A stretch of 64,000 bases of DNA from Nannocystis radixulma (GCF_028369095.1 NZ_JAQNDN010000024.1:89350-153349), one strand, 5' to 3'; shown: positions 2,188 through 62,248, counted from the first letter of the stretch. Notes: a model not told the origin generated them from the letters alone. Numbers and translations: made by a program.

Positions 2188-2364
2188 GCCCACGCGTCGT
2201 CTGTGCATTGTCATCCTCCTTGCATTCGCAAGGAATCACGGCTCGCCCCGGGCACGTCGCGGCCAGCCATGTCGACGGGTCGCGGGACGAACGGACGCAC
2301 CACAGGCGCACCCGTCGTCTTCACCGGCCCGTCGACATCCGCGCGAGACCGTGGCCGGCGCCGA

Positions 2365-6414: not shown

Positions 6415-6430
6415 TCCACGTTTGCCGTGT

Positions 6431-6484
6431 CAACAGAAGGATCCAGAAGGATCCGGGGCTGGCGGGGAATGGATCCGGGCTGGC
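6431..6484. repeat. Short tandem direct repeats (gaaggatcc x2; ggatccgg(g)gctggcgg x2) in yceD upstream region
   Basis: Read directly: agaaggatccagaaggatccggggctggcggggaatggatccgggctggcggcgg. Confidence 0.5.
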
Positions 6485-6490
6485 GGCGGT

Positions 6491-6519
6491 TTGACAGCCC
6501 TGGCGCCACGCGCTACATG
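6491..6519 (+). promoter_or_regulatory. Candidate sigma70-type promoter for yceD (TTGACA-17nt-TACATG) predicting a leaderless transcript
   Basis: Perfect -35 TTGACA at 6491-6496. 17-nt spacer. TAcAtg at 6514-6519 ends 7 nt before the ATG at 6527. Confidence 0.3.
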
Positions 6520-6526
6520 CGGCCGG

Positions 6527-7444
6527 ATGAAGGCCACGACCCGCGACGACGGCACGCAGCTCCCGCCGGAGCTTGACCTCGATCTCGTGGCCCTGGCCCG
6601 CTCGGGGCCGGGCCCGTACGACATCCAGGCGGAGCTTCCGGCGCCGTGGATGGCGACGGTGCTGGCGCACACCGACGCGGAGGTCACGAGTGCCGGATCC
6701 ACCAAGCTCGAGGTCACGCCGATCGGCGAGGGCAGCAGCTACCTGGTCCGCGGCTCGATCCAGGGCGGCTACAGCGTCCCCTGCGCCCGTTGCCTGGCGC
6801 CGGCCGCGGTCTCGGCCGGCGGCGAGATTTGTGTGCACTTCGTCCGCGATCGCGTCGGCGACGCCGACGACGAGGAGACCGAGACCGAGTCGCCCGACGA
6901 GCGCAGCTTCTCCGGCACGCGCATCGACCTGCGGCCGCTGATCACCGAGCAGGTGCTACTGTCGTATCCGATCCGGGCGCTGTGCGCGTACGGCGAGGTG
7001 TGCCGCGGCCTGTGCATGCGCTGCGGCGCCGAGCTGAACGGTCAGCCGCTGGGGCCGTGCGCGGCGTGCGGGGCGGTCGACGCCCAGGTGCCGATCGCCG
7101 CCGACGCCGACCTCGAGGAGCCGGCCAAGCCCACGAGCTCGTGGCAAGCGGCCCTGAGGCAGCTCGCCGACTCCGGCGTGGGCGATGACGACGACGGCAC
7201 CGGGGCCGACAACCTGGAGTTTGCCGGTCCTATTCCTGGCGTCGACGATTTCGATCCCGGGTTCGAGCCGGAGCCCGAGCCGATCCCCAAGTCGTCGGGC
7301 AAGCCGGCCGGGAGATCGGCGGCCAAACCGACGGCCAAGTCGGCCGCGGGCAAGCCGGCGGCCAAGTCGTCCGCCGGCAAGTCGCCCGCCGGCAAGTCGG
7401 CGAGCAAGTCGTCCAAGAAGCCTCCCAGCAAGAAGAAGCAGTGA
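6527..7444 (+). CDS. yceD: YceD/DUF177 family protein (large-subunit rRNA accumulation protein) with ~120-aa C-terminal acidic then Lys/Ala/Ser-rich tail
   Basis: Conserved position immediately upstream of rpmF-plsX-fab. DUF177 Cys pairs (CARCL...CMRCG...CAACG). C-terminus ...[35 protein letters not shown]. Confidence 0.8.
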
Positions 7445-7565
7445 TCTTCGCCTCGAGGGCTTGAGTTATCTCAGGTCCCCGGGGCGCCCTACCGCCCCCT
7501 GCGCCGATTGTGGCGCCGGGAAAAGCGCTAGACTCCCGCCCCCGCTTCCAAGGCGGTTTTGTGCC

Positions 7566-17761: not shown

Positions 17762-19198
17762 GTGGAAGGCGATCGACGCGACGCGACCCGGCGGCTGGCG
17801 GTTCAGTTCGCCGCCCACCTGCGTCACCTCCGGGAGTTCCGGGGTTTGGCGTACGTGTCCGCCGCGTCCTCTCCGCGTCGCGCCGGCGCGCCGAGTTCCG
17901 CGCCCGAGGAGCGATCGCCGGCTCCGGACAGCACCTGGTCGTCCGGACAGGTGACCGATCACGCCGCCGCGGACGCGCGCACACCGACATGGCCCGAAGA
18001 CCAGGCCAGATCCGCCCGCGATTCCGGGCCGCGAGCGCGCACACAACCGGGCCCGGCGGCCTCGGGGCCGCCGCCGCAGGAGATGAAGCGAGGGCGCGCG
18101 CAGCCGGGCCCTGCGGACTGGGAGCCGTCGCAGGAGACGACACGCGGTCGCGCGCAGGCGGGCCCCGAGGACTGGGAGCCGTCGCCGCAGCCGGACCCCG
18201 GGGACTGGGAGCCGTGGCCGCCGCAGGAGACGACACGCGGGCGCGCGCAGCCGGGCTCCGGGGACTGGGAGTCGTCGCAGCAGGAGACGACACGCGGGCG
18301 CGCGCAGCGGGAGTCGCCGCCGCAGGAGCCGACGCGAGGGCGCGCCCAGCGGGGCCCTGCAGAGTGGGAGTCGTCGCCGCCGCAAGAGGCACCGCGCTCA
18401 CGCGCCGCGACCCCGCCGTCCGCGGAGCCGCCGCGCGCTCGCACGGTCAACCAGCAGCCGGCCGAGCCGTCGCCGCGACCCCGGACGGTCAGCCTGCCGC
18501 TGGCGGATCAGGGCACACCGCCGCGTGCGGCCGAGGGCGCGCCGCGCCCGGCCGGCGATGCCTCGCTGCGCACGCAGGCTCAGGCGTGGACGCCGGCGCA
18601 GAAGCTCGAGTACTTACGGGCTCGTAACGTCGGCGACTGCACCCGCTGCAAGCTCTCGAAGACCCGCACGAACATTGTATTCGGCGTCGGCGACCCCAAC
18701 GCGCGGGTGATGTTCATCGGCGAGGCGCCCGGCGCGGACGAAGATCGGCGCGGCGAGCCGTTCGTCGGCGCTGCCGGCCGGCGGCTGACACAGTGGATCG
18801 AGCGCCTGGGCATGAAGCGCGAGCAGGTCTACATCGCCAACGTGCTGAAGTGCCGGCCGCCCGGCAACCGCGAACCGGCCGCCGACGAGATCGAGAAGTG
18901 CTCGCCGTTCCTGCGCGCCCAGATCCGGGCGATCCGCCCCGCGGTGATCGTGGCGCTCGGCAGGTACGCGGGGATGTTGCTGATCGGCACCGATCAGGAT
19001 CTGAAGTTGGCACAGATGCGCAACCGTCGTTGGACCTACGACGACCCAGGTGCAGGCCTGCAGATCCCACTTCACGTCACGTATCATCCGTCGTACGTGA
19101 TCCGACGCGAGGGTGAACTCCCTCCGGGGCAGCGAAACCCGGCCGACGACACGGTGATGTCGGACCTCGAGCGAGCGCTGCGCGTGCTGCGAAGTTGA
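17762..19198 (+). CDS. Family-4 (UdgA-type, Fe-S) uracil-DNA glycosylase with long N-terminal disordered tandem-repeat extension
   Basis: C-terminal ~200 aa: [52 protein letters not shown]...HPSY. GTG at 17762 is preceded by GGAGG at 17749-17753, just after the coaBC stop. The nearest in-frame ATG is at 18083, so at least ~165 aa of repeat region is translated. Confidence 0.7.
18075..18410. repeat. Tandem ~57-bp coding repeats (protein units ..[18 protein letters not shown]..) in the udg 5' region
   Basis: Read directly. Both strands show long ORFs here purely because of the repeat. Confidence 0.7.
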
Positions 19199-20247: not shown

Positions 20248-20802
20248 TCACTGCGGCGCGGCCAGCTTGGCCCCGTTCTTGGGCGGCTCGGTCGGCTTGG
20301 GGGTGCCGGTCAGGGTGGCGGGCTTGGTCGTCGGCGCAGCGCCGCCGTTGGAGATGGTGCTGGTCTTGGGCTTGGACTCGCCGGTGGTGAGGCTGAGGCC
20401 GGCCTTCTGCGTGCCGTCACGCGGGGTGGCCTGGGTCCCCGGATCGAGGCGGGCCGGCGTGGGGTCGGTGGCGCGGCCCGGCTTGGGATCGGTGGCGCGG
20501 CCCGGCTTGGGGTCGGTGGCGCGGCCCGGCGTGGGCTCTTCGGTCGGCTCCGGCGCGGGCTCGGGAGTGGTGGTGGCGGGCTCGGGCTCGGGGGCAGGCT
20601 TGGGGGCGGGCTTGGCAGCGGGAGCCGGAGCAGGTGTGCTCGACGTGTCGACCGCGGCCTGGCGCGCCGGCTTGCCCTTGCCGTTCTTCGTCCCGTTGGT
20701 GGTGCCTGGCGCCGTTCCGGAGCGGCTCGACGACGAATACGAGAAGGAGCAGGCGGGCAGCGAGAAGGCGATGGCCATGAAGACCGGAAGGAGCTTGCGC
20801 AT
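20248..20802 (-). CDS. Putative secreted/lipoprotein, Pro/Thr/Ala-rich low-complexity with GRATDPKP x3 repeats
   Basis: Signal peptide MRKLLPVFMAIAFSLPAC. The alternative plus-strand ORF lacks protein-like features. Confidence 0.55.
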   Translation of the reverse strand: MRKLLPVFMAIAFSLPACSFSYSSSSRSGTAPGTTNGTKNGKGKPARQAAVDTSSTPAPAPAAKPAPKPAPEPEPATTTPEPAPEPTEEPTPGRATDPKPGRATDPKPGRATDPTPARLDPGTQATPRDGTQKAGLSLTTGESKPKTSTISNGGAAPTTKPATLTGTPKPTEPPKNGAKLAAPQ

Positions 20803-27171: not shown

Positions 27172-27595
27172 GTGCATAGGACATGCTCGGTGGAGCATGT
27201 CCTTGCGGACAGCCATCTCCGTCCGGGAGAGCATGTCCTCTTGGACATGGTACATGCGACACCGCCGCGCTCGCCGCCGCTCGATGAGCCGTCCCGCACG
27301 GCGACAAGCGGGGCCGGCGACGCTCTTCGCAGGCGGGCACGGAGCGGCGGAGTGGGACGCCGGCGGGAGGGGCCGCAGGCAACCGCGCGCAGGCGCCATC
27401 GTCCGCCAGGCACGAACGAACCTGTCCTCAACGACGGATCAACATCGAAGCCCACGGGCGCCGAGCACGTTGCCTGGGAGGGCCCCGCCGAAGCGAGCCG
27501 AAGCGAGGGACCTGCTCCGCCGCTCCGTGCCCGCCGTCACCCAGCTCTCCACGGCCCCGCGTCTTCGGTCGCGCGCTTGTCTCAGACAGGCCCCT

Positions 27596-28471
27596 CTAGC
27601 CGAGGGCGAGGACGGCGAGGCCGAGGACGACGAGGTAGGGCACGAAGGGGACCACGCCGACGCGGACGAGCAGGACCAGCAGCACGCGCAGGGTGGCGAC
27701 GCCGACGACGAAGCTGACGAAGAAGCCGACGACGAAGGCCAGCGGGTCGACGGCGGGCAGGCCCTCCTTCATCAGGTCGAGCGCCTCCTTGAGCGAGGCG
27801 CCGAGGATGGCGGGGATCGCCAGCAGGAACGAGAAGCGCGCGGCCGGCAGGCGGCCGAGGCCGAGGCCCATGGCGGCGGCGATCGTCGAGCCGCTGCGCG
27901 AGATGCCGGGCAGGATGGCGACGAGCTGGGCGAGGCCGATGAGCAGCGCCTGCAGCGGCCGCGGGACCTCCTGCGGGCGCCGGCGCTTGCGGGTCAGCCA
28001 CTCGGCCAGGCCCAGCATGGCCGCGGTGACGAGGAAGCAGGCGCCGATGGCCTTGGGGTGGTGCTCGGCGGCGATGACGAGGTTCTCGACCGGCGGGGCG
28101 AGGGCGGCGGCCAGCGGCAAGGTGCCGATGACGAGCGCGAGCAGCAGCGCCCGCGCGTCGGTCGGCGAGCTGCCCGAGGGGACATGTCCCTCCGAGCCTG
28201 GCGTATCGGGCATGCGCTCGGGGACATGTCCCGGACGCAGCACGGCGCGGGCCAGCGCGAGCAGGTCGTCGCGGTAGTGGATCAGGACGGCCAGCAGGGT
28301 GCCGGCGTGGACGACGATGTTGAACGAGTGGCCGCCGGCGCCGGCGTCGAGGCCGGCGACGCGTTGGGCCAGGGCGAGGTGGCCGGACGAGGAGATCGGC
28401 AGGAACTCGGCCACGCCCTGGAGGGCGCCGAGGAGGGCGGCGAGGCCGAGGTCGAGCTCGGGGGCGGACAT
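27596..28471 (-). CDS. uppP: Undecaprenyl-diphosphatase UppP/BacA, with ~25-aa loop insertion encoded by two GGGACATGTCCC copies
   Basis: ...GISRSGSTIAAAMGLG... Insertion RPGHVPERMPDTPGSEGHVPSGSS corresponds to nt 28178-28232. Confidence 0.9.
   Translation of the reverse strand: MSAPELDLGLAALLGALQGVAEFLPISSSGHLALAQRVAGLDAGAGGHSFNIVVHAGTLLAVLIHYRDDLLALARAVLRPGHVPERMPDTPGSEGHVPSGSSPTDARALLLALVIGTLPLAAALAPPVENLVIAAEHHPKAIGACFLVTAAMLGLAEWLTRKRRRPQEVPRPLQALLIGLAQLVAILPGISRSGSTIAAAMGLGLGRLPAARFSFLLAIPAILGASLKEALDLMKEGLPAVDPLAFVVGFFVSFVVGVATLRVLLVLLVRVGVVPFVPYLVVLGLAVLALG
28178..28232. repeat. Two GGGACATGTCCC copies inserted in frame in uppP
   Basis: Read directly. Confidence 0.8.
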
Positions 28472-30213
28472 CAGGGCTCTTCACCCGTGTACGTGGCCGC
28501 GCGCTCGATCATTCCGCGCTCCCACAGGTGAGTCTCGATGGCGTGCATGAGCGGGAAGGTGCTGCGGCGGTCGATGGCGCTGATGAAGAAGGCGTCGGGG
28601 CCGGCGTCCTCGCGGCGAGCGGCCAGCTCCTCCGGCGCGAGCAGGTCGCACTTGTTGAACACGACGAGGCGCGGGACCTTGCCGGCGCCGAGGTCGCCGA
28701 GGATCCCCTCGACGGCGGCGCGCTGCTGGTCGCGGTCGGGGTCGCTGGCGTCGACGACGAGCAGCAGCAGGTCGGCGTCGGCGACCTCCTCGAGGGTGGC
28801 GCTGAACGCCTGCAGCAGGGCCGGCGGGAGGTCGCGGATGAAGCCGACGGTGTCGAGCAGGACGACCTCGCGGTCCTCGGGGAAGCGGATCCGGCGGACG
28901 GTCGGGTCGAGGGTGGCGAACAGCTTGTTCTCGGCCAGCACCTCGCTCTGGGTCACCGTGTTGAGCAGGCTCGACTTGCCGGCGTTGGTGTAGCCGACGA
29001 TCGCTACGACCGGGACGTTGGTGCTGCGGCGCAGCGCGCGGCGCTGGTCGCGACGCTGGCGCAGCTCGTCGAGGCGGCGCGTCAAGGCGCTGATGCGCTC
29101 CTTGGCGCGGCGGCGATCGATCTCGAGCTTGGTCTCGCCGGGGCCGCGCCCGCCGATCCCGCCGGCCAGCCGCGACATCGCGGTGCCCTTGCCGACCATG
29201 CGCGGCAACATGTAGCGCAGCTGGGCCAGCTCGACCTGCAGCTTGCCGTCGGCGCTGCGGGCGTGCTGGGCGAAGATGTCGAGGATCAGCGTGGTGCGAT
29301 CGATGACCTTGAGCTCGGTCTCCTCGGCGATCGCGTGCGCCTGCGAGGGCGTGAGGTCGGGGTCGCAGATCAGGAGCTCGCAGTCCTGCTCGAGCGCGCG
29401 GACGATGACCTCGCGCAGCTTGCCGTGGCCGAAGAAGGTGCGCGGGTCGGGCTGCGGGCGCCGCTGGGTCACGAGGTCCATCAGCTGGATGCCGGCGGTT
29501 CGGCACAGCTCGCGCAGCTCGGAGATCCGCGCCGGGACCTCGGGGCCGCCGCCGTGTATCATCAGCGCGGTCGCCTTGGTGCCGCGCGCCTCGGCCCGCG
29601 CGTCGGTGGTCGCGGCGACCAGCTTGGCCTCGAGCTCGCGGATGAAGCCCGTGAAGTCGATCGGCAGGTCGGGCGCGTCGGCCGGCGGGGGCGTCTCCTC
29701 GTCGGGTCGCGTCGACAGGTCGCGGCTGAGCGTCGAGACAGGTACTCTCGGCCAGGTCCGCAGCGTGAACACCTCGGCGGCCCCGGGCGCGGCCGGGGTG
29801 AGGCTGGCGAGGTCGAGCTGGATGCCGGCGGGGCCGCGGTGCACGGCGGCGACGAGGTCGAGGCGCAGCTTGGCGAGGTCGGCCAACTCCTCGCGCGTGA
29901 GCGGGTCGGGCACGAGGTGCGTGACGATCAGGCGGATGCCGCGCAAGCGGCCGAGCGCGCCGCGGACGCGGGCGAACTCCGGCAGGCTGAGGCTGTGCGC
30001 GTCGCCGAGGATGACGCGCTCGACCTGACCGCGGCGGTCGATGAAGAGGCCGAGCTGACGCCCGAGCTGGTGCGAGAGGTCGAGCAGGTCGCGCGCGAGG
30101 GCGGCCGAGATGACGCGGTCGGCGGGGACGCGGCGCTCGCCGAGGCGCTGGAGGGCGCGCGACTGGCTGCTCTTCAGGTTGGCGGTGTCGCCGTGGATGC
30201 GGTCGGCGCTCAA
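28471..30213 (-). CDS. hflX: GTPase HflX with ~200-aa N-terminal extension
   Basis: HflX N-domain (..LICDPDLTPSQAHAIAEETELKVIDRTTLILDIF..). G-domain motifs IVGYTNAGKSSLLN, DTVGF, NKCD. 1-nt overlap with uppP. Confidence 0.85.
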   Translation of the reverse strand: MSADRIHGDTANLKSSQSRALQRLGERRVPADRVISAALARDLLDLSHQLGRQLGLFIDRRGQVERVILGDAHSLSLPEFARVRGALGRLRGIRLIVTHLVPDPLTREELADLAKLRLDLVAAVHRGPAGIQLDLASLTPAAPGAAEVFTLRTWPRVPVSTLSRDLSTRPDEETPPPADAPDLPIDFTGFIRELEAKLVAATTDARAEARGTKATALMIHGGGPEVPARISELRELCRTAGIQLMDLVTQRRPQPDPRTFFGHGKLREVIVRALEQDCELLICDPDLTPSQAHAIAEETELKVIDRTTLILDIFAQHARSADGKLQVELAQLRYMLPRMVGKGTAMSRLAGGIGGRGPGETKLEIDRRRAKERISALTRRLDELRQRRDQRRALRRSTNVPVVAIVGYTNAGKSSLLNTVTQSEVLAENKLFATLDPTVRRIRFPEDREVVLLDTVGFIRDLPPALLQAFSATLEEVADADLLLLVVDASDPDRDQQRAAVEGILGDLGAGKVPRLVVFNKCDLLAPEELAARREDAGPDAFFISAIDRRSTFPLMHAIETHLWERGMIERAATYTGEEP

Positions 30214-37136: not shown

Positions 37137-37200
37137 CATGTCTTCGGGACATGTCCTTTCTACGCTGTCGCGGAAGTCATGTCCTCAAGAACATGTCCTC
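37137..37200. repeat. GGACA-family array (GCATGTCTTCGGGACATGTCC ... GTCATGTCCTCAAGAACATGTCC) in the ClC/cupin intergenic spacer
   Basis: Read directly. Confidence 0.8.
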
Positions 37201-43174: not shown

Positions 43175-45370
43175 TCATCGCGCGGCCTCCGGGCGACGGG
43201 CCAGCCAGGCCGGCAGGCGGGTGGTGACGAGCAGGAGCAGGAAGATCAGGACGGCGTAGGCGGCGGCGTAGCCGTACTGGGCCTCGCGGGTGAAGGCCCA
43301 GCGGTAGGCCTCGCTGACGAGGATGTCGGTCGCGCCGTCGGGGTCGCCGCCCGAGACGAGGAACACGACGTTGAACATGTTGAAGGTCCAGATCGCGCCG
43401 AGGGTGACGGCCGGGGCGAGGGCGGGGCGGATCATCGGCAGGGTGACGCGGGTGAGGCGTTGCCAGCGCGAGGCGCCGTCGACCTCGGCGGCCTCGAGCA
43501 CGTCGGTGGGCACGGCCGTGAGCGCGCCGAGGGTGACGACCATCATGAAGGGGAAGCCGAGCCACACGTTGGTGGCGACGTTGGCGGCGAAGGCGGTGGC
43601 GAAGCGCGAGAACCAGGCGATCGGCTCGATGCTGGTGCCGAACAGGTCGTTGACGGCGTGAATCAGGCCGGTGACGGCGCCGAACTGCTGGTGGAACATG
43701 CCCTTCCACGCCAGGGCGGTGACGTAGCTGGGGACGGCCCAGGGGATGATCAGGAGCACGCGGTAGAGCGCGCGCAGGCGCAGGGTCGGGCGCGACAGCA
43801 CGAGGCCGAGCGCGAGGCCGATGCCGAGGTGGAGGACGACGTTGACGGCCGTCCACAGGAAGGTGACGAGGAGGACGAACCAGAACGAGCCGGTGGCGAG
43901 CAAGGGGCCGCCGCGGGCGGTGAGGATCTCGAAGAAGTTGGCGAGGCCGACGTAGTAGCCCTCGCCGGGGCGGCCGGCGAACAGCGAGGTGGCGGCGCCG
44001 ACGATCAGCGGGACGAACACCAGGAGGCCGACGACGACGACGCTGTGGGCGACGTAGCGGTAGGCAGGCAGCGAGCGGCGCAGGGCCTGGCGCGCGTCGG
44101 GGTCGCGGGCGCGGCGGACCAGGTGGAACGCGACGAGCAGGAGGCCGAGGCCGAGCAGCAAGAGCGCGGGGGTCGGCGAGGCCGCGGCGGGAGGGGGACG
44201 GCGGACGTCGGCGAAGCGGTGCGCGGCCTCGGCGAGGGCCTCGGCGGGGTCGGCCTGGCCGCGCAGGACCTTGCGGATCGCGCGGAACGCCGGCTCCCAG
44301 GTCGAGCGCATCGCCGGGTCGGCCGACATCGGCTCGGCCAGCTCGGCCTGGGCGCGGAAGCCGGCGAGGACGGGGCTGTCCTCGGGGACAGGTACGTCTG
44401 TCCTCACGGACAGGGTGCCGGCCTGGCGCTGGCGCAGCTCGGCCGCGTCGGCGCTGCCGAGGGCGCGGGCCAGGGCCAGCGCTGCCGGCTTCTCGACCCC
44501 CTGCGGCGATAGCATGGCGGCCTCGACGGTCAGCGGCGGGCGCATCGGCAGGCCGGTCTCGGCGACGATCGGCAGCGGGACGACGCGCCAGGCGAAGCCG
44601 ACCTGCGCGAGGTCGCCGACCAGCCACGGGCCGCTGATGGCGAAGGCCGCTCGGCCGCTGCGGAACAGATCCGCGACCAGCGCCCCGTCGGCGTCGCGCG
44701 GGACGGCGCCGCGCTCGGCGAGCTCGCGCGCGAACGCCAGCGAGCGCTCGGCCGCCGGCCCGACGAAGCCGAAGGATCCGTCCTCGGCGAGCATGCGCCC
44801 GCCGAAGGCCGCCAGCAGCGGCATGTGGCCGTAGGCGCTCTGGGCCTCGTAGGCCAGCGGGTAGACGCCGGCGGGCAGCGACAGCGCGGCGATCTCCTCC
44901 AGGGTCTTCGGGACATGTCCGACGAGACCGGCGTTGACGAACAGCGCGACCGACTTGGCGCTCAGCGGCACGCCCCAGACGACGCCGTCCTGGGTGACCG
45001 CGGCCAGCGACTGCGCGGAGTAGACGTCGGGTGCGTCGAGCGCGGCAGTCGCCGGGCCGACGAGGGCGCGCTGGCGGTAGTCGCCGAGGCGCTCGTGCGA
45101 GTCGATGAAGACGTCGGGCCCCTGGCCGCGCGGGATGGTCGCCACCAGCTTGCTGGCGAAGCTCTCGTGGGCGACGGCCAGCAGCTCGACGCGGTGGCCG
45201 GTGGTCGCGCTGAAGCGCTCGACGACCTCGACCAGGGCGGCGGCCTCGGCGTCGCGGTAGGCATGCCACAGCCGCAGCTCGTCGGCCCGCGCGAGGGCGG
45301 GGGCGAGGGCGGCGAGCAGCGCGAACGCGGCGCAGAGGACATGTCCGGGAGAGCCTGTTCGCTGACGCAT
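43175..45370 (-). CDS. Fused maltose/maltodextrin-type periplasmic solute-binding protein plus MalF-like ABC permease
   Basis: N-terminal ~400 aa is a signal peptide plus SBP (..LRLWHAY..VFIDSHERLGDY..). C-terminal ~300 aa is a permease with EAA loop EAAEVDGASRWQRL. The ATG is supplied by a GGACATGCG repeat copy. Confidence 0.8.
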   Translation of the reverse strand: MRQRTGSPGHVLCAAFALLAALAPALARADELRLWHAYRDAEAAALVEVVERFSATTGHRVELLAVAHESFASKLVATIPRGQGPDVFIDSHERLGDYRQRALVGPATAALDAPDVYSAQSLAAVTQDGVVWGVPLSAKSVALFVNAGLVGHVPKTLEEIAALSLPAGVYPLAYEAQSAYGHMPLLAAFGGRMLAEDGSFGFVGPAAERSLAFARELAERGAVPRDADGALVADLFRSGRAAFAISGPWLVGDLAQVGFAWRVVPLPIVAETGLPMRPPLTVEAAMLSPQGVEKPAALALARALGSADAAELRQRQAGTLSVRTDVPVPEDSPVLAGFRAQAELAEPMSADPAMRSTWEPAFRAIRKVLRGQADPAEALAEAAHRFADVRRPPPAAASPTPALLLLGLGLLLVAFHLVRRARDPDARQALRRSLPAYRYVAHSVVVVGLLVFVPLIVGAATSLFAGRPGEGYYVGLANFFEILTARGGPLLATGSFWFVLLVTFLWTAVNVVLHLGIGLALGLVLSRPTLRLRALYRVLLIIPWAVPSYVTALAWKGMFHQQFGAVTGLIHAVNDLFGTSIEPIAWFSRFATAFAANVATNVWLGFPFMMVVTLGALTAVPTDVLEAAEVDGASRWQRLTRVTLPMIRPALAPAVTLGAIWTFNMFNVVFLVSGGDPDGATDILVSEAYRWAFTREAQYGYAAAYAVLIFLLLLVTTRLPAWLARRPEAAR

Positions 45371-45414
45371 GTCCGGGCGGACATGCGCGAATCGACAGGC
45401 TCTCGCGGACATGC

Positions 45415-52716: not shown

Positions 52717-52989
52717 GGAGCTGTCTCTCGGGACATGTCATGGTGACTTGGAGGACATGTCCTCCGGGGCATGCCGATGGCGATGAGGATGTGCTGTTCA
52801 CCTGGTCGACTGCGCGCGGGGCGAATTTGCGCGCGAAAATCGAGGCGATCGGACGCGACGGAAAGGGCGTAATGGCGGCTGGGGCTGGCGACGGGGCAGG
52901 AATGCTCGCCATCGCGCGAAGTGGCCTCTTGCCTGGAAATGAAACGCGTTCTAGATGTGTAGAACGCGTTTCACAGAGGACGAATCTCC

Positions 52990-54372: not shown

Positions 54373-54405
54373 CGCGTGCCCCCGAGCCGCATACACCGGG
54401 GAGAC

Positions 54406-55167
54406 ATGACGGCTGCCCCGATCCCCGGCGAGCTCACCCTCGTCGACGACCGCGCCCGCCGAATCCTCGACGCGGCAGTCCGACTCGCCGAGTCCGGCGG
54501 GTTCTCGGCCGTGCGCCTGCGCGATGTGGCCCAGGCGTCCGGCGTGGCCCTGGGCACGGTCTACAAGCGCTTCCGCAGCAAGGAAGACCTGCTGGTCGGA
54601 GTGCTGTCGCTCGAGCTGGTGGCGCTGCGCGAGCGCTTCGGCGATGCACCACTCCCCGGCGCGACCCGCCTCGACCGCCTGATCGAGTGCTTCGCAGCGC
54701 TGACCGAGACGCTGTGCGCACGACCGCATCTGGGACGCGCGGTGATCCGCTCGGCGGCGACGGGAGAGAACGCGCTGGCCGAACGACTGCACCGCTTCCA
54801 CAGCGCGCTGATGGAGCTGATCGTGGGGGCGATCCGCGGCCGCGACGAGGGACCGGTGACGGCGACGGAGCTCGAGATGCTGGCTGTCCTGCAGGATGTA
54901 TGGTTCTCTCGCCTGGTCGGCTGGACGGCGGAACTGCACGGGCCGGAGACGGTGGTGGAGCAGGTGGCTCGGGCGGCTCGGTTGCTTTACGGGGCGATCG
55001 AGGGGGCAGGCTCGTCCGGGGAGATTCGCTCGGGGGGATCTGAGTCCGAGGAGATTCGCTCGTCCGGAGGGGCTGAGTCCGGAGAGCTTCGCTCGTCCGG
55101 AGGCGCGGGGGCTGAGTCCGGAGAGCTTCGCTCGTCCGGAGGCGCGGGGCATGGAAGAACTGGGTGA
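54406..55167 (+). CDS. TetR-family regulator with ~60-aa C-terminal tandem-repeat tail (SGEIRSGGSES / SGELRSSGGAG x4)
   Basis: ATG at 54406 preceded by GGGGAG. HTH ..FSAVRLRDVAQASGVALGTVYKRFRSKEDLL. The stop TGA lies inside the MITE-like element. Confidence 0.8.
   Translation: MTAAPIPGELTLVDDRARRILDAAVRLAESGGFSAVRLRDVAQASGVALGTVYKRFRSKEDLLVGVLSLELVALRERFGDAPLPGATRLDRLIECFAALTETLCARPHLGRAVIRSAATGENALAERLHRFHSALMELIVGAIRGRDEGPVTATELEMLAVLQDVWFSRLVGWTAELHGPETVVEQVARAARLLYGAIEGAGSSGEIRSGGSESEEIRSSGGAESGELRSSGGAGAESGELRSSGGAGHGRTG
55010..55150. repeat. Tandem ~33-bp minisatellite (gctgagtccggagagcttcgctcgtccggaggcgcggg, 2 perfect plus 2 degenerate copies) forming the TetR C-terminal tail
   Basis: Read directly. 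Confidence 0.8.
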
Positions 55168-55400
55168 CGGCGGGCACGGAGCGGCGGACTTGGGTCCCTC
55201 GCTCGGCGGGCCCCTACCGGTTCACGTGCTCGGCGCTGTCTCTTTGGACAGGATGGTCTTGAGGACAGGTTCGTCGAGTCGGCACAGGACGGGCGCCTGC
55301 GCGCGCTGAACCGCGTCTCCGTCCCACCGGCGTCCCAAATCCGCCGCTCCGTGCCCGCCTCTCGACGATCGTCGCGGGCCCCGCTCGTGGCGGGGCGGGG
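55153..55400. mobile_element. MITE-like ~250-bp element copy A with ~26-bp terminal inverted repeats GGCGGGCACGGAGCGGCGGA(C/T)TTGGG
   Basis: About 90% identical to 59745-60005. Left inverted repeat 55169-55194. Right inverted repeat ends 55359 (ccgccgctccgtgcccgcc). Contains GGACAGG motifs internally. Confidence 0.65.
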
Positions 55401-55528
55401 CGTGCGCCGTTGCTCGTTTGCGAGGCGCTGTTTCTTGGGACAGGGTGGTCTTGGGGACAGGTTGATGGCGTGGGTGGATTGGCTGTGCTGCGAGCTCGAT
55501 CGAACGCGGGGCGAGCGCGTTCGCGGGG

Positions 55529-56140
55529 TCATCGTCGGCGCCGGCGCAGCGCCAGGGCCAGCGACGCCAGGAGCATCAGCGCGGGCGTGCCGTCTTCGCT
55601 GGCGCGGCAGCCGTCGCAGCCGAGGGGCTTCGTCGGCGTGCCGCCGCTGCTCGCCGCCGAGTCGCCGGAGCTCGAGCTGGCGCCGCTCGAACCGCCGCTC
55701 GCGGTCGAGTCGCCGGAGCCGGAGCCCGTGACGGAGCTGCTGCCGGCGGTGTCGCTGGTCGTCGCGCTCTCCGAGACGCACAGCTTGAACATCTTGCACG
55801 TCCCCTTGGCGCAGGTGCCCCCCTCGCCGCACTCGCCGACGATGTCGTCGAGGAGGTCGCCGCCAGCGCTGGTCGTGAGGCCGCCGCCGCACTCGAAGGA
55901 CTGGGCGCACTTCTCGACCGCCTGGCACACCTTGCCTTCGGGACAGGTCGGGTCGTTGCTGCAATCCTGCGGGCTGCAGAACGGGCCGCTGTGACAGGCG
56001 TTCGGGGTCGCGCCGTCGGGGCAGCTCTCCGGCTCGACGACGACGTCGGCCCGGGCGAGGCCGCTCGTCGCGGCGAGGAGCGCGAGCAGGGCCGCCGCAC
56101 ACCACTTGCCCGCGAAGCGATAAGATGGAGCGATAAGCAT
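55529..56140 (-). CDS. Secreted Cys-rich protein with C-terminal MYXO-CTERM sorting domain
   Basis: Signal peptide. 20 Cys. Ser/Gly linker. Terminal ...GCDGCRASEDGTPALMLLASLALALRRRRR. Confidence 0.75.
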   Translation of the reverse strand: MLIAPSYRFAGKWCAAALLALLAATSGLARADVVVEPESCPDGATPNACHSGPFCSPQDCSNDPTCPEGKVCQAVEKCAQSFECGGGLTTSAGGDLLDDIVGECGEGGTCAKGTCKMFKLCVSESATTSDTAGSSSVTGSGSGDSTASGGSSGASSSSGDSAASSGGTPTKPLGCDGCRASEDGTPALMLLASLALALRRRRR

Positions 56141-56193
56141 CGTTCGATGCTACACGTCGCCGGCGGGGGCAGCAACGGCGGCTGCGCGGGCGG

Positions 56194-56853
56194 GTGCTCG
56201 CAGGCTATCATCGCACCGTGCATGTCGGCCGGCACCGCGTCCTGAGCGTCGTCCTGGCGGCGGCGCTGCCCGGCTGCGGCGAGCCGGTGAAGGCGGGCGC
56301 GGATCGGCCCCCGAGCCCGACGGCGGGCTGCCCCGAGAGCACTGTCGCCGATCCGTCGCGCGCTGCGACGTTGCTCGCCGGCGTGACGAACACCCGATCC
56401 GGGGCCCGCGCGCTGGCGCGGCTGGGGCTGCGCGACTACAGGATCTGCTTCGGCGGCCGGGAGCTCGGCAGCGTGCGTGCCGGAGGCGTGCTGGTGCTCG
56501 ATCGATCGGCGCCCGTGCAGGTCAGCGTGGCGCGTGTCGTGCACCTGCTCGAGCATGTGGCCGACGGCCTCGACCGCTTCCCCGCGCCGGGTGTCCCATG
56601 CTCGCAGCAGCTCGACGCGGTGATCGCCGGCGAGGCGCGAGCGATCGTGGCCGAGATCGAGGCGCGGGAGGAACTGGGCGTCGAGGCCGGCGGGCTGGCA
56701 GAGGTCGCCGAGCAACTCCGCGGCCTCGCTGCCGACGAGCGCCTCGCGCTGGTCGAGCGCCAGCTCCGCGCGGCCGAACCGCAACACTCGCCAGAGCTCG
56801 CCGAGCTGATGCGCAGCTACGCCGCGCGGTGCGAGCGGGCCGCGAGTCCGTGA
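56194..56853 (+). CDS. Hypothetical lipoprotein
   Basis: ...VLSVVLAAALPGCGEP lipobox. Start (GTG or ATG) uncertain. Confidence 0.45.
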   Translation: MLAGYHRTVHVGRHRVLSVVLAAALPGCGEPVKAGADRPPSPTAGCPESTVADPSRAATLLAGVTNTRSGARALARLGLRDYRICFGGRELGSVRAGGVLVLDRSAPVQVSVARVVHLLEHVADGLDRFPAPGVPCSQQLDAVIAGEARAIVAEIEAREELGVEAGGLAEVAEQLRGLAADERLALVERQLRAAEPQHSPELAELMRSYAARCERAASP

Positions 56854-56920
56854 ATCTCCGGCGACGCGGGCGCACGTCGATGCATGCGAGCTCCGCCGGC
56901 GGAGACGTGGAGAATATGAT

Positions 56921-57010
56921 TGTCTAGACATGTCTCATTGGGCATGCGCAGACGGCAAGGTCATGAGGCGCCCCGGGCGATCAGACATGTCGTCACAGAC
57001 ATGTCCGAAT
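56921..57010. repeat. GGACA-family array (AGACATGTCTC..GGCATGCGC..AGACATGTCGTCACAGACATGTCC) in a convergent intergenic region
   Basis: Read directly. Confidence 0.75.
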
Positions 57011-57026
57011 GAACATTCCCCTTTGG

Positions 57027-57632
57027 TCAGCCGGCGCGTGAGTCGGCGACCTCGGCCAGGGCGCACAGGGCCGAGTCGCAGTGTTGGCTGGCGATCGGGC
57101 TGCAGCCGTCGGGGAGGGCGTCGACGCGGGTGATCTGGGCCTGCTGGGCGGGGGAGCGCAGGAGGTAGACGAGGCCCTGGCGGGTGACGTAGTAGGTCTC
57201 GCGGGCGCGGGTCCAGAAGCCGGACAGGGAGCGCGGGGCGGTGTTGGCGGGCGGGGCGACGTCGATCATGACGAAGTCGTCGCCGTGGACGAGCGGCTCG
57301 ACGAGCGCCGGCGGGCTGACAGGGGTGAGGCGCTCGGGCGACGGGCGGCCGACGGCGACGAAGTGGCGCTCGTCGCGGAAGTCGGCGGGGGCGTAGAGCT
57401 TGGTGTGATGGTGGGTGATCAGGCGGAACAGCCCGGCGAACACGACGAACGGGAACACGACCACGAATCCGAGCAGGACGTCGCGCTGCCCGGGGGTGAG
57501 GTGGGCGACGGCGAGGCTGCCGAACATGTTGGCGACGCCGTACGAGAACACGAGGCACAGCGCGAGCAAGCCGAGCGGGCCGCGGGCCAGGACGGCGGCC
57601 GTACGCCCGAATCGTGCCGGATCGACGGTCAT
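57027..57632 (-). CDS. Hypothetical membrane protein (2 TM)
   Basis: Hydrophobic segments LGLLALCLVFSYGVANMF and LLGFVVVFPFVVFAGLF. Protein-like composition. Confidence 0.4.
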   Translation of the reverse strand: MTVDPARFGRTAAVLARGPLGLLALCLVFSYGVANMFGSLAVAHLTPGQRDVLLGFVVVFPFVVFAGLFRLITHHHTKLYAPADFRDERHFVAVGRPSPERLTPVSPPALVEPLVHGDDFVMIDVAPPANTAPRSLSGFWTRARETYYVTRQGLVYLLRSPAQQAQITRVDALPDGCSPIASQHCDSALCALAEVADSRAG

Positions 57633-57725
57633 GTCGAGGCGAAACTATCACGGAGGCGCCGTTACCGCCAAACTGCAAGTTTGGTGATCTGAATTACGAA
57701 AAGGGCATTGCTGCCGTGCGTGCGA

Positions 57726-57811
57726 CGTGACCCTTGGGACAGGTCCGTACGCGTTCGCCCGGGAACATGGGGAGCTTCGCCGTGTGGACCTGGCCATCAG
57801 GACATGTTCAT
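57726..57811. repeat. GGACA-family array (GGGACAGGTCC ... GGACATGTTCATGGGGACATGG) upstream of the membrane-protein gene
   Basis: Read directly. Confidence 0.75.
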
Positions 57812-58695
57812 GGGGACATGGTGCTGCGGGCGGCGGCGACGAGGAAGTCGACGACGGCGCGGACGCGCGGGGCGAGCAGGCGGCTCTGCGGGAACACGAG
57901 CTGGATCGGCAGGCCGGGCTCCTCGGGGGTGTCGGCGAAGAGCTGGCGCAGGGCGCCGCGCTTGAGGTCGGCGGCGATCGTGACGTCGGGCAGCCAGGCG
58001 ATGCCCATGCCGGCGAGCACGAGCTGGCGCAGGGCCTCGTTGCTGTCGCTGGCGACGGGGCCCTGCGGGGTGAGGTGGCCGCCGCCGGGCAGCTCCCAGG
58101 CGACGCGCCGGCCGGCGCGGAGGATGGCGAGCAGGCGGTGACCCGCGAGGGCCTCGGGGGTGCGCGGGACGCCGTGGGCCTTGAGGTAGGTCGGGGTGGC
58201 GCAGAAGCAGCGGCGCAGGCGACCGAGCCGCCGCTGGACCAGCCGGCCGTCGCCCTCGCCGCCGACGCGCAGGGCGAGGTCGAATTGCTCGGCGTGCAGG
58301 TCGACGAAGCGGTCGGCGAGCTCGAGCGCGACGGCGATCTGCGGGTGCGCGCGGTGAAGGGCAGGCAGGCGCGGGACGAGCCAGGCGTGGCCGAGCTCGA
58401 CCGGGGCGCTCATGCGGACCTGCCCGCGCGGGCCAGTGGCGCGGGCGGCCTCCTCGCAGGCGTCGGTGATGTCGTCGAATGCCCGCTGCACCCGCGCGAA
58501 CAGGGCCTCGCCCTCGGGAGTCGGCTGCAGACCCTGGCCGCTGCGCACGACCAGCGGTACGCCGAGCTTCTGCTCGAGCCGCGCGACCTGCTTGCTGAAG
58601 GCCGAGGGGGTGGTGCCGGCCTCGCGCGCGGCGGCGCTGAAGCTGCCCGCCCGCACGCTGCGGACGAACGCGTGGAGTTGCGGCGACAGGTCCAC
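57808..58695 (-). CDS. LysR-family transcriptional regulator
   Basis: N-terminal HTH (LHAFVRSVRAGSFSAAAREAGTTPSAFSKQVARLEQKLGVPLVVR) plus LysR substrate-binding domain. Confidence 0.9.
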   Translation of the reverse strand: MDLSPQLHAFVRSVRAGSFSAAAREAGTTPSAFSKQVARLEQKLGVPLVVRSGQGLQPTPEGEALFARVQRAFDDITDACEEAARATGPRGQVRMSAPVELGHAWLVPRLPALHRAHPQIAVALELADRFVDLHAEQFDLALRVGGEGDGRLVQRRLGRLRRCFCATPTYLKAHGVPRTPEALAGHRLLAILRAGRRVAWELPGGGHLTPQGPVASDSNEALRQLVLAGMGIAWLPDVTIAADLKRGALRQLFADTPEEPGLPIQLVFPQSRLLAPRVRAVVDFLVAAARSTMSP

Positions 58696-58787
58696 GGGGT
58701 TTGCCTTTCAGGCACAGGCGATGTGCCAGCAATCACACTACCATGCTGCGCAGGAACACACCATGCTCACGGCACAGGAGCAGCGAG

Positions 58788-59705
58788 ATGAAGCGTGCAT
58801 TCGTGACAGGTGTTTCCGGTTATATCGGCGGCTCGGTGGCGCGACGGCTGGTGCAGGACGGCTACGAGGTGATGGGCCTGGTCCGCGATCCGGCGAGCGC
58901 GGCGCGCGTGGAGGCGACGGGGGTGCGCCCGGTGATCGGCGGGCTCGACGATACGGAGCTGCTGGGGCGGCTGGCCGCCGAGGCCGACGTGGTGGTCAAC
59001 GCCGCCGACTCGGACCACCGCCCGGCGATCGAGGCGCTGGTCGAGGGGCTGCGCGGGACGGGCAAGACGCTGGTGCACACCAGCGGGTCGTCGATCGTCG
59101 CCGATGTCGGCACAGGCGCGCTGTCGGAGCAGGTGTTCACCGACGACACGCCGTTCACGCCGGTGGCGGCGAAGGCGGCGCGCGTGGCCATCGACCGCTT
59201 CGTCCGCGACGCGGCGAAGCTGGGGATCCGCAGCTTCGTGGTGTGCCCGACGATGATCTACGGCCGTGGCAGTGGCAGCAAGCGCGACTCGATCCAGGTG
59301 CCGATGCTGATCCGCGAGTCGCAGCAGCGCGGCGCCGGGGTGTACATCGGCGAAGGCCGCAACATCTGGTCGAACGTGCACATCGACGACCTCGTCGACC
59401 TGTACACGCTGGTGATCGACAAGGCCGAGCCCGGTAGCTTCTTCTTCGCCGAGAACGGCGAGACGTCGCTGCGCGAGGTGGCGCTGGCGATCGCGCACCT
59501 GCTCGGGTTCGGCGACCGCACGACGTCGTGGCCGCTGGCCGAGGCGATCGCGGCGCTCGGCGCGGAGGCTGCGGCCATGGGCCTGGCGTCCAACAGCCGG
59601 GTGCGAGCGACGCACGCGCGGGCACTCGGCTGGCGTCCGTCGCGGCCGGGGCTGGTCGAGGACATCGAGCGCGGCAGCTATCGCCAGGACTTCGGGCCGG
59701 GGTGA
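58788..59705 (+). CDS. NAD(P)-dependent epimerase/dehydratase (NmrA/SDR-like), divergent from the LysR gene
   Basis: MKRAFVTGVSGYIGGSVARRL Rossmann motif. Confidence 0.85.
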   Translation: MKRAFVTGVSGYIGGSVARRLVQDGYEVMGLVRDPASAARVEATGVRPVIGGLDDTELLGRLAAEADVVVNAADSDHRPAIEALVEGLRGTGKTLVHTSGSSIVADVGTGALSEQVFTDDTPFTPVAAKAARVAIDRFVRDAAKLGIRSFVVCPTMIYGRGSGSKRDSIQVPMLIRESQQRGAGVYIGEGRNIWSNVHIDDLVDLYTLVIDKAEPGSFFFAENGETSLREVALAIAHLLGFGDRTTSWPLAEAIAALGAEAAAMGLASNSRVRATHARALGWRPSRPGLVEDIERGSYRQDFGPG

Positions 59706-59744
59706 ACGCGCGCTTCATGGTGACGGCGAGTCCGAGGGCGCGGG

Positions 59745-60005
59745 GCCCGGAAGAACCGGGTGACGGCGGGCACGGAGCGGCGGATTTGGGCCCCTCGCTC
59801 GGCCTCGCTCGGCGGGCCCCTACCGGTTCACGTGCTCGGCGCCTGTCGCTGCGGACAAGATGCTCTTGAGGACATGTTCATCGCGCGCGCGCAGGACAGG
59901 GCGCCTGCGCGCGCTGAACCGCGTCTGGTGTCCCACCGGCGTCCCAAATCCGCCGCTCCGTGCCCGCCTGCAGCGAGCGTCGCGGGCCCCGCTCGTCGCC
60001 GGGCG
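59745..60005. mobile_element. MITE-like element copy B
   Basis: Aligns end to end with 55153-55400. Has the same terminal inverted repeats plus a 9-bp internal duplication (cctcgctcgg). Confidence 0.65.
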
Positions 60006-60211
60006 GAGGACGCTACGCCGAGCCAGCAGCGGGGCGAGTTCTGTATGATTGATGAGACATGTTCAAAGGGACATGTGGATGGCGTGACTGTGAGGCCTGG
60101 CCGGTCGGGGCCGGCGAGGAGCGTCGTCCGCGGCCCGAGGTCGGCGTGCGCGGGTCGGAGGCGGCCGGGCGCTTGACCGCGAGCCGGCCGAGGCGCCATC
60201 CTCGGGGCCGC

Positions 60212-62248
60212 GTGTCGCGCTCGCACCGGATCCTGCCTGTCCTTTCGATCTTGTGGGTCGGCTGCACCGATCCGCCGCTGATGTCGGAGACGACGGACTC
60301 GGTGACGATGCCGCCGAGCACGATGCCGTACGACCCGTCGCAGGGCGGGAACGTGACGGGCTACGCCACGGGAGGGCCCGAGCCGACCACCGGTGAGCCG
60401 ACCACCGGCGAGCCGCCGCCGCCGATGTGCGACGACGCGCTGAAGCGCTGCGACCACGAGTTCACGTACCCCGACAACGGCGAGACGTCGGTCGATGTGA
60501 TGGGGAGCTTCGCGCCCGACGGGTGGACGAAGGGCGCGGCGATGAAGAGCGACGGGACGACCTGGCGCGTGACCGTGACGGTCCCCTGGGACACCCCGGT
60601 GCAGTACAAGCTGCGCATCGACGGGTCGATGAGCTGGATCCCCGACCCGAACAACCCCGAGCAGATCGACGACGGGTTCGGCGGCTACAACTCGGTGCTC
60701 GAGCCGAAGACCTGCGACCCGTTCACCTGCGAGGCGGCCTCGTGCGGGGCGCCGCAGGAGGGTCAGTTCGACTGGCGCGACGCGGTGATCTACTTCGTGT
60801 TCGTCGACCGCTTCAACAACGGCGACCCGGGCAACGACGCGCTGATCGGGGTCGAGACGGCGGCCGACTGGCAGGGCGGCGACTGGGCGGGGGTGACGGC
60901 GAAGATCGAGGAGGGGTACTTCACCGAGCTCGGGATCAACACGCTGTGGTTGACGGTGCCGATGAACAACACGTCGGATGACGGCCTCGGCACCGACGGG
61001 CACCTGTACAGCGCGTACCACGGCTACTGGCCGACCGACCTGACGCAGACCGAGGAGCACTTCGGCACGCTGGCGGAGCTGCAGGCGCTGGTGGCGGCGG
61101 CCCACACGGCCGACCTCAAGGTGATCCTCGACTACGCGATGAACCACGTGCACATCAGCGCGCCGGTCTACGCCGACAACCCCGACTGGTTCAACCCCAA
61201 CGACAACGGGAGCGGCGGCAATTGCGTGTGCGGGGCCGGCTGCTCGTGGGACGGGGCCGACGGCGAGCGCTGCTGGTTCACCGACTACCTGCCCGACTTC
61301 AACTTCGGCAACCAGGCGGCCCGCGACTTCTCGGTCGACAACGCGATCCAGTGGATCATGGACACCGGCGCCGACGGGTTCCGCCTCGACGCGGTCAAGC
61401 ACATCAAGATCGAGTGGCTGACCGACCTGCGCGCGCGCGTGCAGGCCGACGTCGAGCCGATGTCGGGCCAGCACTTCTACATGGTCGGCGAGACGTTCAC
61501 GGGCGACAAGCCGACCATCAACAAGTACGTCGGCTGCGACAAGCTCGACGGCCAGTTCGATTTCCCGCTGCGCATGCAGATGGCCTACAACGTGCTGATG
61601 CGCCAGGGCTCGATGGGAGAGCTGGCCGACTTCTACGACGCCAACAACAATTATTACAACGGCGGGGCGGCGGTGATGAGCACGTTCATCGGCAACCACG
61701 ACATCCCGCGCGCGATCCACCTGGCCGAGGACTCGCCGCTGTGGAACAACCAGTGGGCCGACGGCAAGGACCGGGCGTGGGACAACAAGCCGGGGCTGCC
61801 GGGCGGCGCCGCGGCGTTCGAGCGCCTGGGGCTTTCGTTCACGATGCTCTACACGTCGCTCGGCGCGCCGCTGGTGTACTACGGCGACGAAGTCGGCATG
61901 CCCGGCGCCGGCGACCCCGACAACCGCCGCTTCATGCAGTGGGACGGCTACTCGGCGGGGCAGACCTGGCTCTTGGGTCATATCCAGGATCTGGGGGCGA
62001 TCCGCGCGGCTCACCCGGCGCTGCGCCGCGGCTCGTACACGCGCCTCGGCGCCGATGCCGACAGCTTCGCCTACTCGATGTCCGGCGAGGGCGAGACGGT
62101 GACGGTGGCCGTCAACCGCAGCGACGCCGACAAGTCGGTCGGCAACCTGCCGGCGATGACGCTGAAGGACGAGTTGACCGGCGAGATGGTCGAGGGGCCG
62201 ATGGTGACGGTGCCGGCCCGCTCGGCGCGGATCCTGGTCGCGCCCTGA
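60212..62248 (+). CDS. GH13 alpha-amylase-family lipoprotein with N-terminal CBM-like domain and Pro/Thr linker
   Basis: GTG start gives VSRSHRILPVLSILWVGC lipobox. GFRLDAVKH, FIGNHD, YYGDE motifs. Confidence 0.85.
   Translation: MSRSHRILPVLSILWVGCTDPPLMSETTDSVTMPPSTMPYDPSQGGNVTGYATGGPEPTTGEPTTGEPPPPMCDDALKRCDHEFTYPDNGETSVDVMGSFAPDGWTKGAAMKSDGTTWRVTVTVPWDTPVQYKLRIDGSMSWIPDPNNPEQIDDGFGGYNSVLEPKTCDPFTCEAASCGAPQEGQFDWRDAVIYFVFVDRFNNGDPGNDALIGVETAADWQGGDWAGVTAKIEEGYFTELGINTLWLTVPMNNTSDDGLGTDGHLYSAYHGYWPTDLTQTEEHFGTLAELQALVAAAHTADLKVILDYAMNHVHISAPVYADNPDWFNPNDNGSGGNCVCGAGCSWDGADGERCWFTDYLPDFNFGNQAARDFSVDNAIQWIMDTGADGFRLDAVKHIKIEWLTDLRARVQADVEPMSGQHFYMVGETFTGDKPTINKYVGCDKLDGQFDFPLRMQMAYNVLMRQGSMGELADFYDANNNYYNGGAAVMSTFIGNHDIPRAIHLAEDSPLWNNQWADGKDRAWDNKPGLPGGAAAFERLGLSFTMLYTSLGAPLVYYGDEVGMPGAGDPDNRRFMQWDGYSAGQTWLLGHIQDLGAIRAAHPALRRGSYTRLGADADSFAYSMSGEGETVTVAVNRSDADKSVGNLPAMTLKDELTGEMVEGPMVTVPARSARILVAP

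Follow-up and report, generated by a model that had tools for sequence, protein, structure and literature searches.

A stretch of 64,000 nucleotides from Nannocystis radixulma (GCF_028369095.1, NZ_JAQNDN010000024.1:89350-153349; hereafter the window) carries three non-coding repeats, copies A, B and C. They are very probably solo terminal arms of an IS1182-family insertion sequence (IS) that is resident in the genus Nannocystis. In other words, they are ordinary mobile-DNA debris from an unusually built IS. A first-pass annotation had described A and B as a MITE (miniature inverted-repeat transposable element) with 26-bp terminal inverted repeats. The two copies of about 250 bp are indeed there, about 90% identical, and their 26-bp inverted arms lie where they had been placed. 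However, a third and more diverged copy, C, had been overlooked on the minus strand, and the 26-bp repeats are not the ends of the element.

The repeats and the intact insertion sequence

The link between the repeats and an IS comes from other genomes. A scan of a genome collection with a 20-nt core of the repeat gave paired matches only in Nannocystis punicea and N. bainbridge, and a profile search then yielded 13 complete units as well as fragments. At least four other Nannocystis genomes have homologous units, and so do metagenomes, where a 20-mer scan added only a few further C-type copies. At the N. punicea locus L007 an element at 4975-7055 has two inverted units, 4975-5265 and 6765-7055, which are 96.2% identical to each other over 291 bp and flank a 459-aa open reading frame (ORF). 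Its product scores 360 bits against the NCBIfam model NF033551, "IS1182 family transposase" (cutoff 270), and also matches Pfam DUF772, DDE_Tnp_1 and DDE_Tnp_1_6. Two more intact copies of ~2.09 kb, built in the same way, are found in N. pusilla (L024 and L025), and one further intact copy lies on a metagenome contig. Because two inverted copies flank the transposase in these intact elements, the ~290-bp unit is a single terminal arm of an IS that measures ~2.08 kb and has terminal inverted repeats of 291 bp.

The three copies in the window, and the parts of them discussed below, are placed as follows.

55121-55406, plus strand: copy A, probable solo IS arm, written from outer to inner end (nhmmer E = 2e-82; core common with B at 55134-55398)
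55169-55194, plus strand: 5' strand of the copy A helix, the earlier left "terminal inverted repeat" (inverted-repeat search, covarying fold)
55334-55359, plus strand: 3' strand of the copy A helix, the earlier right "terminal inverted repeat" (inverted-repeat search, covarying fold)
59718-60023, plus strand: copy B, probable solo IS arm (nhmmer E = 1e-86; the BLASTN match to the IS reaches 60023)
59765-59790, plus strand: 5' strand of the copy B helix (inverted-repeat search)
59943-59968, plus strand: 3' strand of the copy B helix (inverted-repeat search)
27263-27595, minus strand: copy C, probable IS right arm plus ~31 bp of the 3' end of the transposase gene (27263-27293) (BLASTN, nhmmer)
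27332-27357 and 27510-27535, minus strand: strands of the copy C helix (inverted-repeat search)
27596-27599, no strand assigned: CTAG, the target, at the outer end of copy C; its minus-strand TAG is the uppP stop codon (uppP, 27596-28480)
55002-55149, plus strand: tandem 30/39-bp repeats, read as an amplified subterminal outer segment of copy A (Tandem Repeats Finder, TRF)
55428-55465, plus strand: just inside copy A, a second occurrence of the motif at the hairpin apex, CTGTnTCTTnGGACAGGnTGGTCTTGnGGACAGGTT (69% identity over 58 nt; ~33 matches in the first 38 nt)

Copies A and B stand in direct orientation 4.6 kb apart and can be aligned over ~55134-55398 and ~59730-60006 at ~90% identity. 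Beyond this block similarity collapses and the flanking sequences are unrelated. Therefore, the pair is not a segmental duplication. Each copy contains an inverted pair of 26-nt arms, GGCGGGCACGGAGCGGCGGA(C/T)TTGGG, with a complementarity of 96% in A and 100% in B, and none of 100 shuffled windows gave any match to these arms. In all copies conservation goes on past the left arm for ~35 bp and past the right arm for ~40 bp. The conserved block thus exceeds both 26-nt arms, which must therefore be internal rather than terminal. In the intact elements the 26-nt repeats lie ~60 bp inside the true termini (GAGCCTG...), and both are within a single arm. Such an arm is made up of the short terminal repeat itself (GAGCCTG...), a small and GC-rich subterminal stretch that is prone to tandem duplication, and a ~240-nt hairpin module. 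The supposed terminal repeat of 26 nt is the longest helix of this module.

Seven full copies, from Nannocystis and metagenomic relatives, read CTAG/GAGCCTG...CAGGCTC/CTAG. In these seven the perfect terminal repeat is 15-21 nt long and CTAG stands on both sides, and there is a single CTAG at one empty site. As CTAG is palindromic, a 4-bp duplication is indistinguishable from a 2-bp one.

The window copies are less complete. The unit is ~270-330 bp long and has no coding capacity; ORFs that run over the repeats have no Pfam domain and show poor codon-position GC. A tblastn search with the IS transposase (E = 1e-3) found no transposase in the window, and A, B and C are therefore non-autonomous, in all probability solo arms. 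This agrees with the first-pass view of the repeats as non-coding and non-autonomous. No direct repeat, target-site duplication or second terminal repeat was found beside A, B or C, and C has CTAG at its outer end only. An Rfam scan of the window at gathering thresholds gave no matches.

Other incomplete copies were found outside the window. Internally deleted copies that keep both arms are present at L001 and L016. There are also solo right arms that retain a piece of the transposase 3' end, ~31 bp in copy C of the window and 47, 75 and 85 bp in L019, L012 and L005, respectively. At L014 a left arm remains, together with the 5' leader and 28 codons. In L019 ~37 bp of the other terminus are kept too, with CTAG after them, which amounts to the two-ended layout of a MITE. 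Another recurrent feature is a tandem duplication, 2-4 times over, of the outermost ~40-60 bp of the IS arm, which several Nannocystis copies show with differing junctions (L005, 4568-4665; L016, 4513-4600 and 6008-6181; L012, ~7472-7560). For the array at the outer end of copy A, TRF gives a period of 39 and 2.1 copies at 100% identity, plus degenerate copies. We read this array as belonging to the element, given the apparent resemblance of its repeat unit to the IS terminus GCCTGTCCAGGAAATCGCGCGTCCGAGGGCGCGGGGC. The recurrent outer-end duplications (L005, L016, L012 and copy A) may reflect replication slippage beside a strong hairpin.

Copy C lies 28 kb away, on the strand opposite to A and B. 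The match extends over 27263-27595 by BLASTN to the IS and over 27284-27583 by nhmmer (E = 2e-78), and it corresponds to IS positions 1775-2094 with 89.8% identity to the N. punicea IS (BLASTN). In N. exedens the end of uppP is identical (...CTCGGCTAG/CG), and queA comes after a spacer of 79 bp that is free of the element. With ...GGCTAG at the junction, the N. exedens uppP end is the empty target site of copy C. The 64-kb window has only eight CTAG sites where its base composition predicts ~160, a depletion of ~20-fold, and one of the eight is the junction between copy C and the uppP stop codon. CTAG being so rare, targets in the window are therefore few, and one of them is on a stop codon. 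This depletion may be the reason for insertions at stop codons, as with copy C, CTAG giving TAG. However, it leaves A and B, which are without CTAG, unexplained.

The hairpin module

The hairpin module is an accessory part of this IS1182 subgroup. Relatives with ~70% identical transposases differ in whether they have it. L032 is without the module and is ~1.65 kb long with 15-nt terminal repeats. In L026 and L030 the module sits solely between the stop codon of the transposase and the terminal repeat on the right; both ends carry it in L031 and in the Nannocystis elements.

The fold of the module is kept by compensatory substitutions. RNAalifold folds an alignment of 15 arms into a single long hairpin with 53 pairs, and compensatory changes are seen in 18 of these. 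Paired cells make up 96.5%, versus 90.3% in column shuffles, and none of 500 shuffles reaches the observed values. When the partners are slid by 1-3 columns as a control, pairing is 32-49%. Folds of single copies have z-scores of -3.1 and -4.9. The helix sequence is GGCGGGCACGGAGCGGCGGAG in Nannocystis and GGCGAGCGAGGGGCCGACG in L026, with pairing retained in both, and the apex of the hairpin varies in sequence and length. Which strand is the functional one? G-U outnumber A-C mismatches by 29 to 7 toward the transposase-sense strand, but that strand was also the one used to predict the fold. An alignment of the antisense strand folds equally well, and single antisense sequences even slightly better. 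A choice of strand from the mismatches was rejected because the count is biased by the strand of the fold prediction.

What might the module do? One guess is that it folds in RNA or in single-stranded DNA and so shields the element from transcription by the host. Transcripts would often read into or out of the element because CTAG targets are mostly at gene ends in a GC-rich genome. Two observations lend the insulator no support. Both strands fold about equally well, which favours neither strand and neither RNA nor DNA. In addition, a scan for canonical promoters and terminators over 54800-60400, which covers A and B, found nothing relevant, although the U-tract-less terminators of GC-rich bacteria are outside its reach. 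An Rfam E-value scan of the L007 locus with the full IS gave only one sub-threshold chance match. If the module is functional, it could be an RNA that controls transposase expression or insulates against read-through, or a cis-element for transposition in the form of single-stranded DNA or a cruciform. The far-reaching proposal is that the module, in one of these forms, is a functional structured nucleic acid that the IS1182 subgroup needs, and that after decay of the IS the host retains it as a 3'-end element giving terminator or stabiliser functions and even stop codons, as for the TetR gene described below. We regard this proposal as doubtful.

A separate observation concerns the arms at L023, in Nannocystis sp. 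SCPEA4. Both arms of an IS1182-family copy are interrupted there at one internal position, GGGTCCCT/CTCGCG, with CT duplicated. The interrupting elements (2307-3684 and 5457-6834) are 1378 bp each and 100% identical. Their product is an RNA-guided transposase of the IS110 family (NF033542, 216 bits). It appears that the hairpin arm at this locus is the target of an IS110-type element. Elements of the IS110/IS1111 family, such as IS4321 and IS5075 in Tn21-type repeats, take IS ends as targets, and the L023 arms, with an IS110-family element at one internal site, are similar in this respect. The IS110-family element is not present in the window.

Insertion sites and neighbouring sequences

Copies A, B and C are insertion-polymorphic between Nannocystis species. 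For the sites of A and B, syntenic loci were retrieved via homologues of the neighbouring epimerase. The locus in Nannocystis sp. SCPEA4 has 96.3% DNA identity to the window and carries both A and B at orthologous places, whereas both sites are empty in N. punicea and Nannocystis sp. ILAH1. The uppP gene of the window is 100% identical to its N. radixulma counterpart. The gene order in the window is P450, TetR regulator, copy A, MYXO-CTERM gene, LysR regulator, epimerase, copy B, alpha-amylase. The genes next to the copies, and examples of a short motif considered below, are placed as follows.

54376-55167, plus strand: TetR-family gene; the ORF enters copy A and stops at TGA 55165-55167 within a conserved GGGTGAC
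55529-56140, minus strand: gene for a protein with a MYXO-CTERM sorting domain, between copy A and the LysR gene
58788-59705: epimerase gene, stop codon directly before copy B
27172-27260, 37147-37198, 45337-45413, 52731-52762, 56926-57016, 57787-57820 and 60050-60078: clusters of GGACAKG (examples)

The first-pass annotation was right that A and B follow plus-strand genes and that copy A provides the TetR stop codon. At site B the epimerase stop codon is at the junction, and the last codon of the gene differs between filled and empty genomes. The predicted TetR protein has 263 aa in the window and 254 aa in SCPEA4, versus 201 aa in N. punicea and ILAH1, where the site is empty. The Pfam domains TetR_N and TetR_C_20 end at residue 204 of the window protein. 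Orthology stops at 54992-55004, after which the ORF reads the tandem repeats through to the TGA. Copy A has replaced the last codons and the stop of the TetR gene and added a tail of ~60 residues (54988-55167), roughly ...GSSGEIRSGGSESEEIRSSGG..., encoded by the tandem repeats of the element.

Copy A is also part of a variable spot. A 2.03-kb block at 55004-57036, which holds copy A, the MYXO-CTERM gene and an unassigned ORF at 56194-56853, gives way to 74 bp in ILAH1 and to ~1.4 kb of unrelated sequence in N. punicea. Near the right edge of the block are a CTAG (56924) and nine nucleotides that match the IS terminal repeat (CATGCGCAG, ~56944). The block was considered as a decayed IS with cargo, but it yielded no transposase similarity and no second arm, just the 9-nt match and the nearby CTAG. 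A repeat scan of the whole window found other tandem or periodic repeats at 18013-18387, 634-1037, 20449-20544 and 5973-6059, with periods of ~54-57, 96-105, 24 and 15 nt.

It had been suggested that short GGACAGG/GGACATG repeats were derived from the element or carried by it as a family. The motif (GGACAKG) occurs 91 times in the window against 17.4 expected, an enrichment of ~5-fold that no shuffle reached. Its clusters lie away from the element, between genes in the regions looked at, and often contain pairs that can form hairpins (GGACATG...CATGTCC). They are conserved at orthologous sites in other Nannocystis species. The motif is present even where the element is not: in ILAH1 and N. punicea it lies upstream of the amylase gene, and in N. 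exedens it lies in the spacer between uppP and queA. Because the motif is found across the window and at these empty sites, a derivation of the short-repeat family from the IS is not supported. GGACAKG does stand in the hairpin apex and in the 5' leader of the transposase; the IS carries a motif of host type. The clusters possibly have an operator, terminator or REP-like role.

Probable origin of the copies and comparison with known elements

How secure is the derivation of the three copies from the IS? Decay of an IS is the best reading for A and B as well, but it is less secure than for C, and several points weigh against it. Copies A and B are only ~75% identical to characterised IS arms (75% for copy A against the N. 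punicea arm by BLASTN). No full IS with arms of the A/B type was found, and a metagenome scan with an A/B-specific 26-mer gave no matches. A and B have no recognisable GAGCCTG terminus, CTAG or target-site duplication, and their orthologous empty sites are also without CTAG. Finally, the boundaries of A and B are nearly the same, which fits a copied solo unit better than two independent IS decays. Perhaps, then, the hairpin module stands apart from the IS as a selfish foldback element or a gene for a structured RNA, which colonises the ends of IS1182-type elements and also spreads alone, A and B being module copies. The uneven presence of the module among related IS copies (none, right end only, both ends) would fit, as would the shared boundaries of A and B, which form a separate subfamily without IS terminal repeat and CTAG. 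The strong covariation, which shows selection on the fold of the module, would fit too. However, the copies that were looked at closely adjoin IS termini and/or remnants of the transposase, the exceptions being the A/B pair and a diverged copy at L015 that has no such remnants. The module is present in low copy number, a handful per 13-Mb genome by exact 20-mer scan, and neither a target-site duplication nor defined module termini were found. Moreover, the 3' region of the module-less L032 is replaced rather than cleanly interrupted, and the module has no Rfam match. We consider an independent module unlikely.

A MITE of ~190-250 bp that ends at the 26-bp inverted repeats and is mobilised in trans by an IS630/Tc1- or IS5-like transposase would account for the perfect or near-perfect 26-bp inverted repeat, for the small and non-coding unit and for the insertion polymorphism between species. 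What it does not accommodate is that conservation in A, B, C and more than 20 other copies goes 35-40 bp past both repeats, that no duplication flanks these repeats, and that both of them are found within a single arm of the intact elements. Nor is it easily squared with repeats that vary in sequence from lineage to lineage and still pair, as a structural helix would. Such a MITE is highly unlikely. The word describes the copies well as far as they are small, non-coding, multi-copy, polymorphic and derived from a transposon; it fails on the internal position of the repeats, the single arm per copy and the missing target-site duplication. The first-pass annotation had proposed searches for a cognate transposase and for target-site duplications. 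The former was found in N. punicea and N. pusilla and is of the IS1182 family, a relative of IS5, but the match is to the whole arm and not to two ends. The latter were found flanking neither A nor B. It had also allowed for two copies only, in a segmental duplication. Local duplication or chance similarity, with no mobile-element origin, could be suspected from the direct orientation and short distance of A and B. However, the flanks are non-homologous, a third copy exists far off on the other strand, homologues occur in other Nannocystis genomes and metagenomes, and chance is contradicted by the shuffles, which give zero matches. This explanation deserves almost no credence.

If A, B and C are solo arms of the IS, as we prefer to think, their history may be pictured as follows. 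Insertions took place next to the stop codons of uppP (C), the TetR gene (A) and the epimerase gene (B), where the copies are seen today. The module may, at a guess, have shielded them from host transcription. Later deletion of the transposase and of the other arm would have left immobile single arms, and in A and B a recognisable terminal repeat would have gone as well. Host genes that read into the solo arms may now use them as 3'-end structures. As for the IS itself, its long terminal repeats seem to have arisen by copying of the structured 3' module to the other end.

Two members of the IS1182 family provide a comparison. ISPse1 from Paracoccus is 1653 bp long, with 16-bp inverted repeats and a 4-bp direct repeat (PMC3281130). 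ISPsy36 from Pseudomonas syringae is 1666 bp long and targets GGCC (PMC8027508). The Nannocystis IS resembles the family in its single DDE transposase (NF033551), the short repeat at its very ends and a palindromic flank of 4 bp (CTAG), and module-less L032 is close to ISPse1 and ISPsy36 in size. In contrast to ISPse1, the Nannocystis IS has ~2.08 kb and 291-bp terminal inverted repeats. It also differs from the family as described in searchable papers by the ~240-nt covarying hairpin in each arm; a literature search for IS1182 elements with long structured ends, or for IS or MITE elements of Nannocystis, found nothing specific. Unlike a complete IS1182 element, the window holds orphan arms only.

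The orphan arms can also be compared with other small repeats. Bacterial MITEs such as MITEAba12 and IS-derived elements such as Correia are short, non-coding, derived from an IS, insertion-polymorphic and adjacent to genes, and they can alter the end of an ORF. The window copies share all of this. However, a standard MITE carries both IS termini and target-site duplications, whereas A, B and C each have a single arm, an internal inverted repeat and no detectable duplication. With its two termini L019 does have the MITE layout; MITE formation occurs in this IS family, but not at A, B and C. The ERIC/IRU and REP/BIME repeats are imperfect palindromes at gene 3' ends. They are present in high copy number and are not the terminal arm of an element with a DDE transposase. 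The window arms are likewise long imperfect palindromes at gene 3' ends, and an RNA 3'-end structure is plausible for them. Unlike ERIC/IRU and REP/BIME, they are low in copy number and have a documented IS origin.

For annotation, the repeats should be labelled as IS1182-family remnants and not as a new MITE family with 26-bp ends. The TetR gene illustrates that an IS insertion can rewrite the C-terminus of a regulator. The parent element is notable in its own right, with terminal repeats of 291 bp versus ~16 bp in characterised members of the family. Its hairpin module has been conserved by compensatory change across transposases that are ~70% identical, which points to a function in cis.

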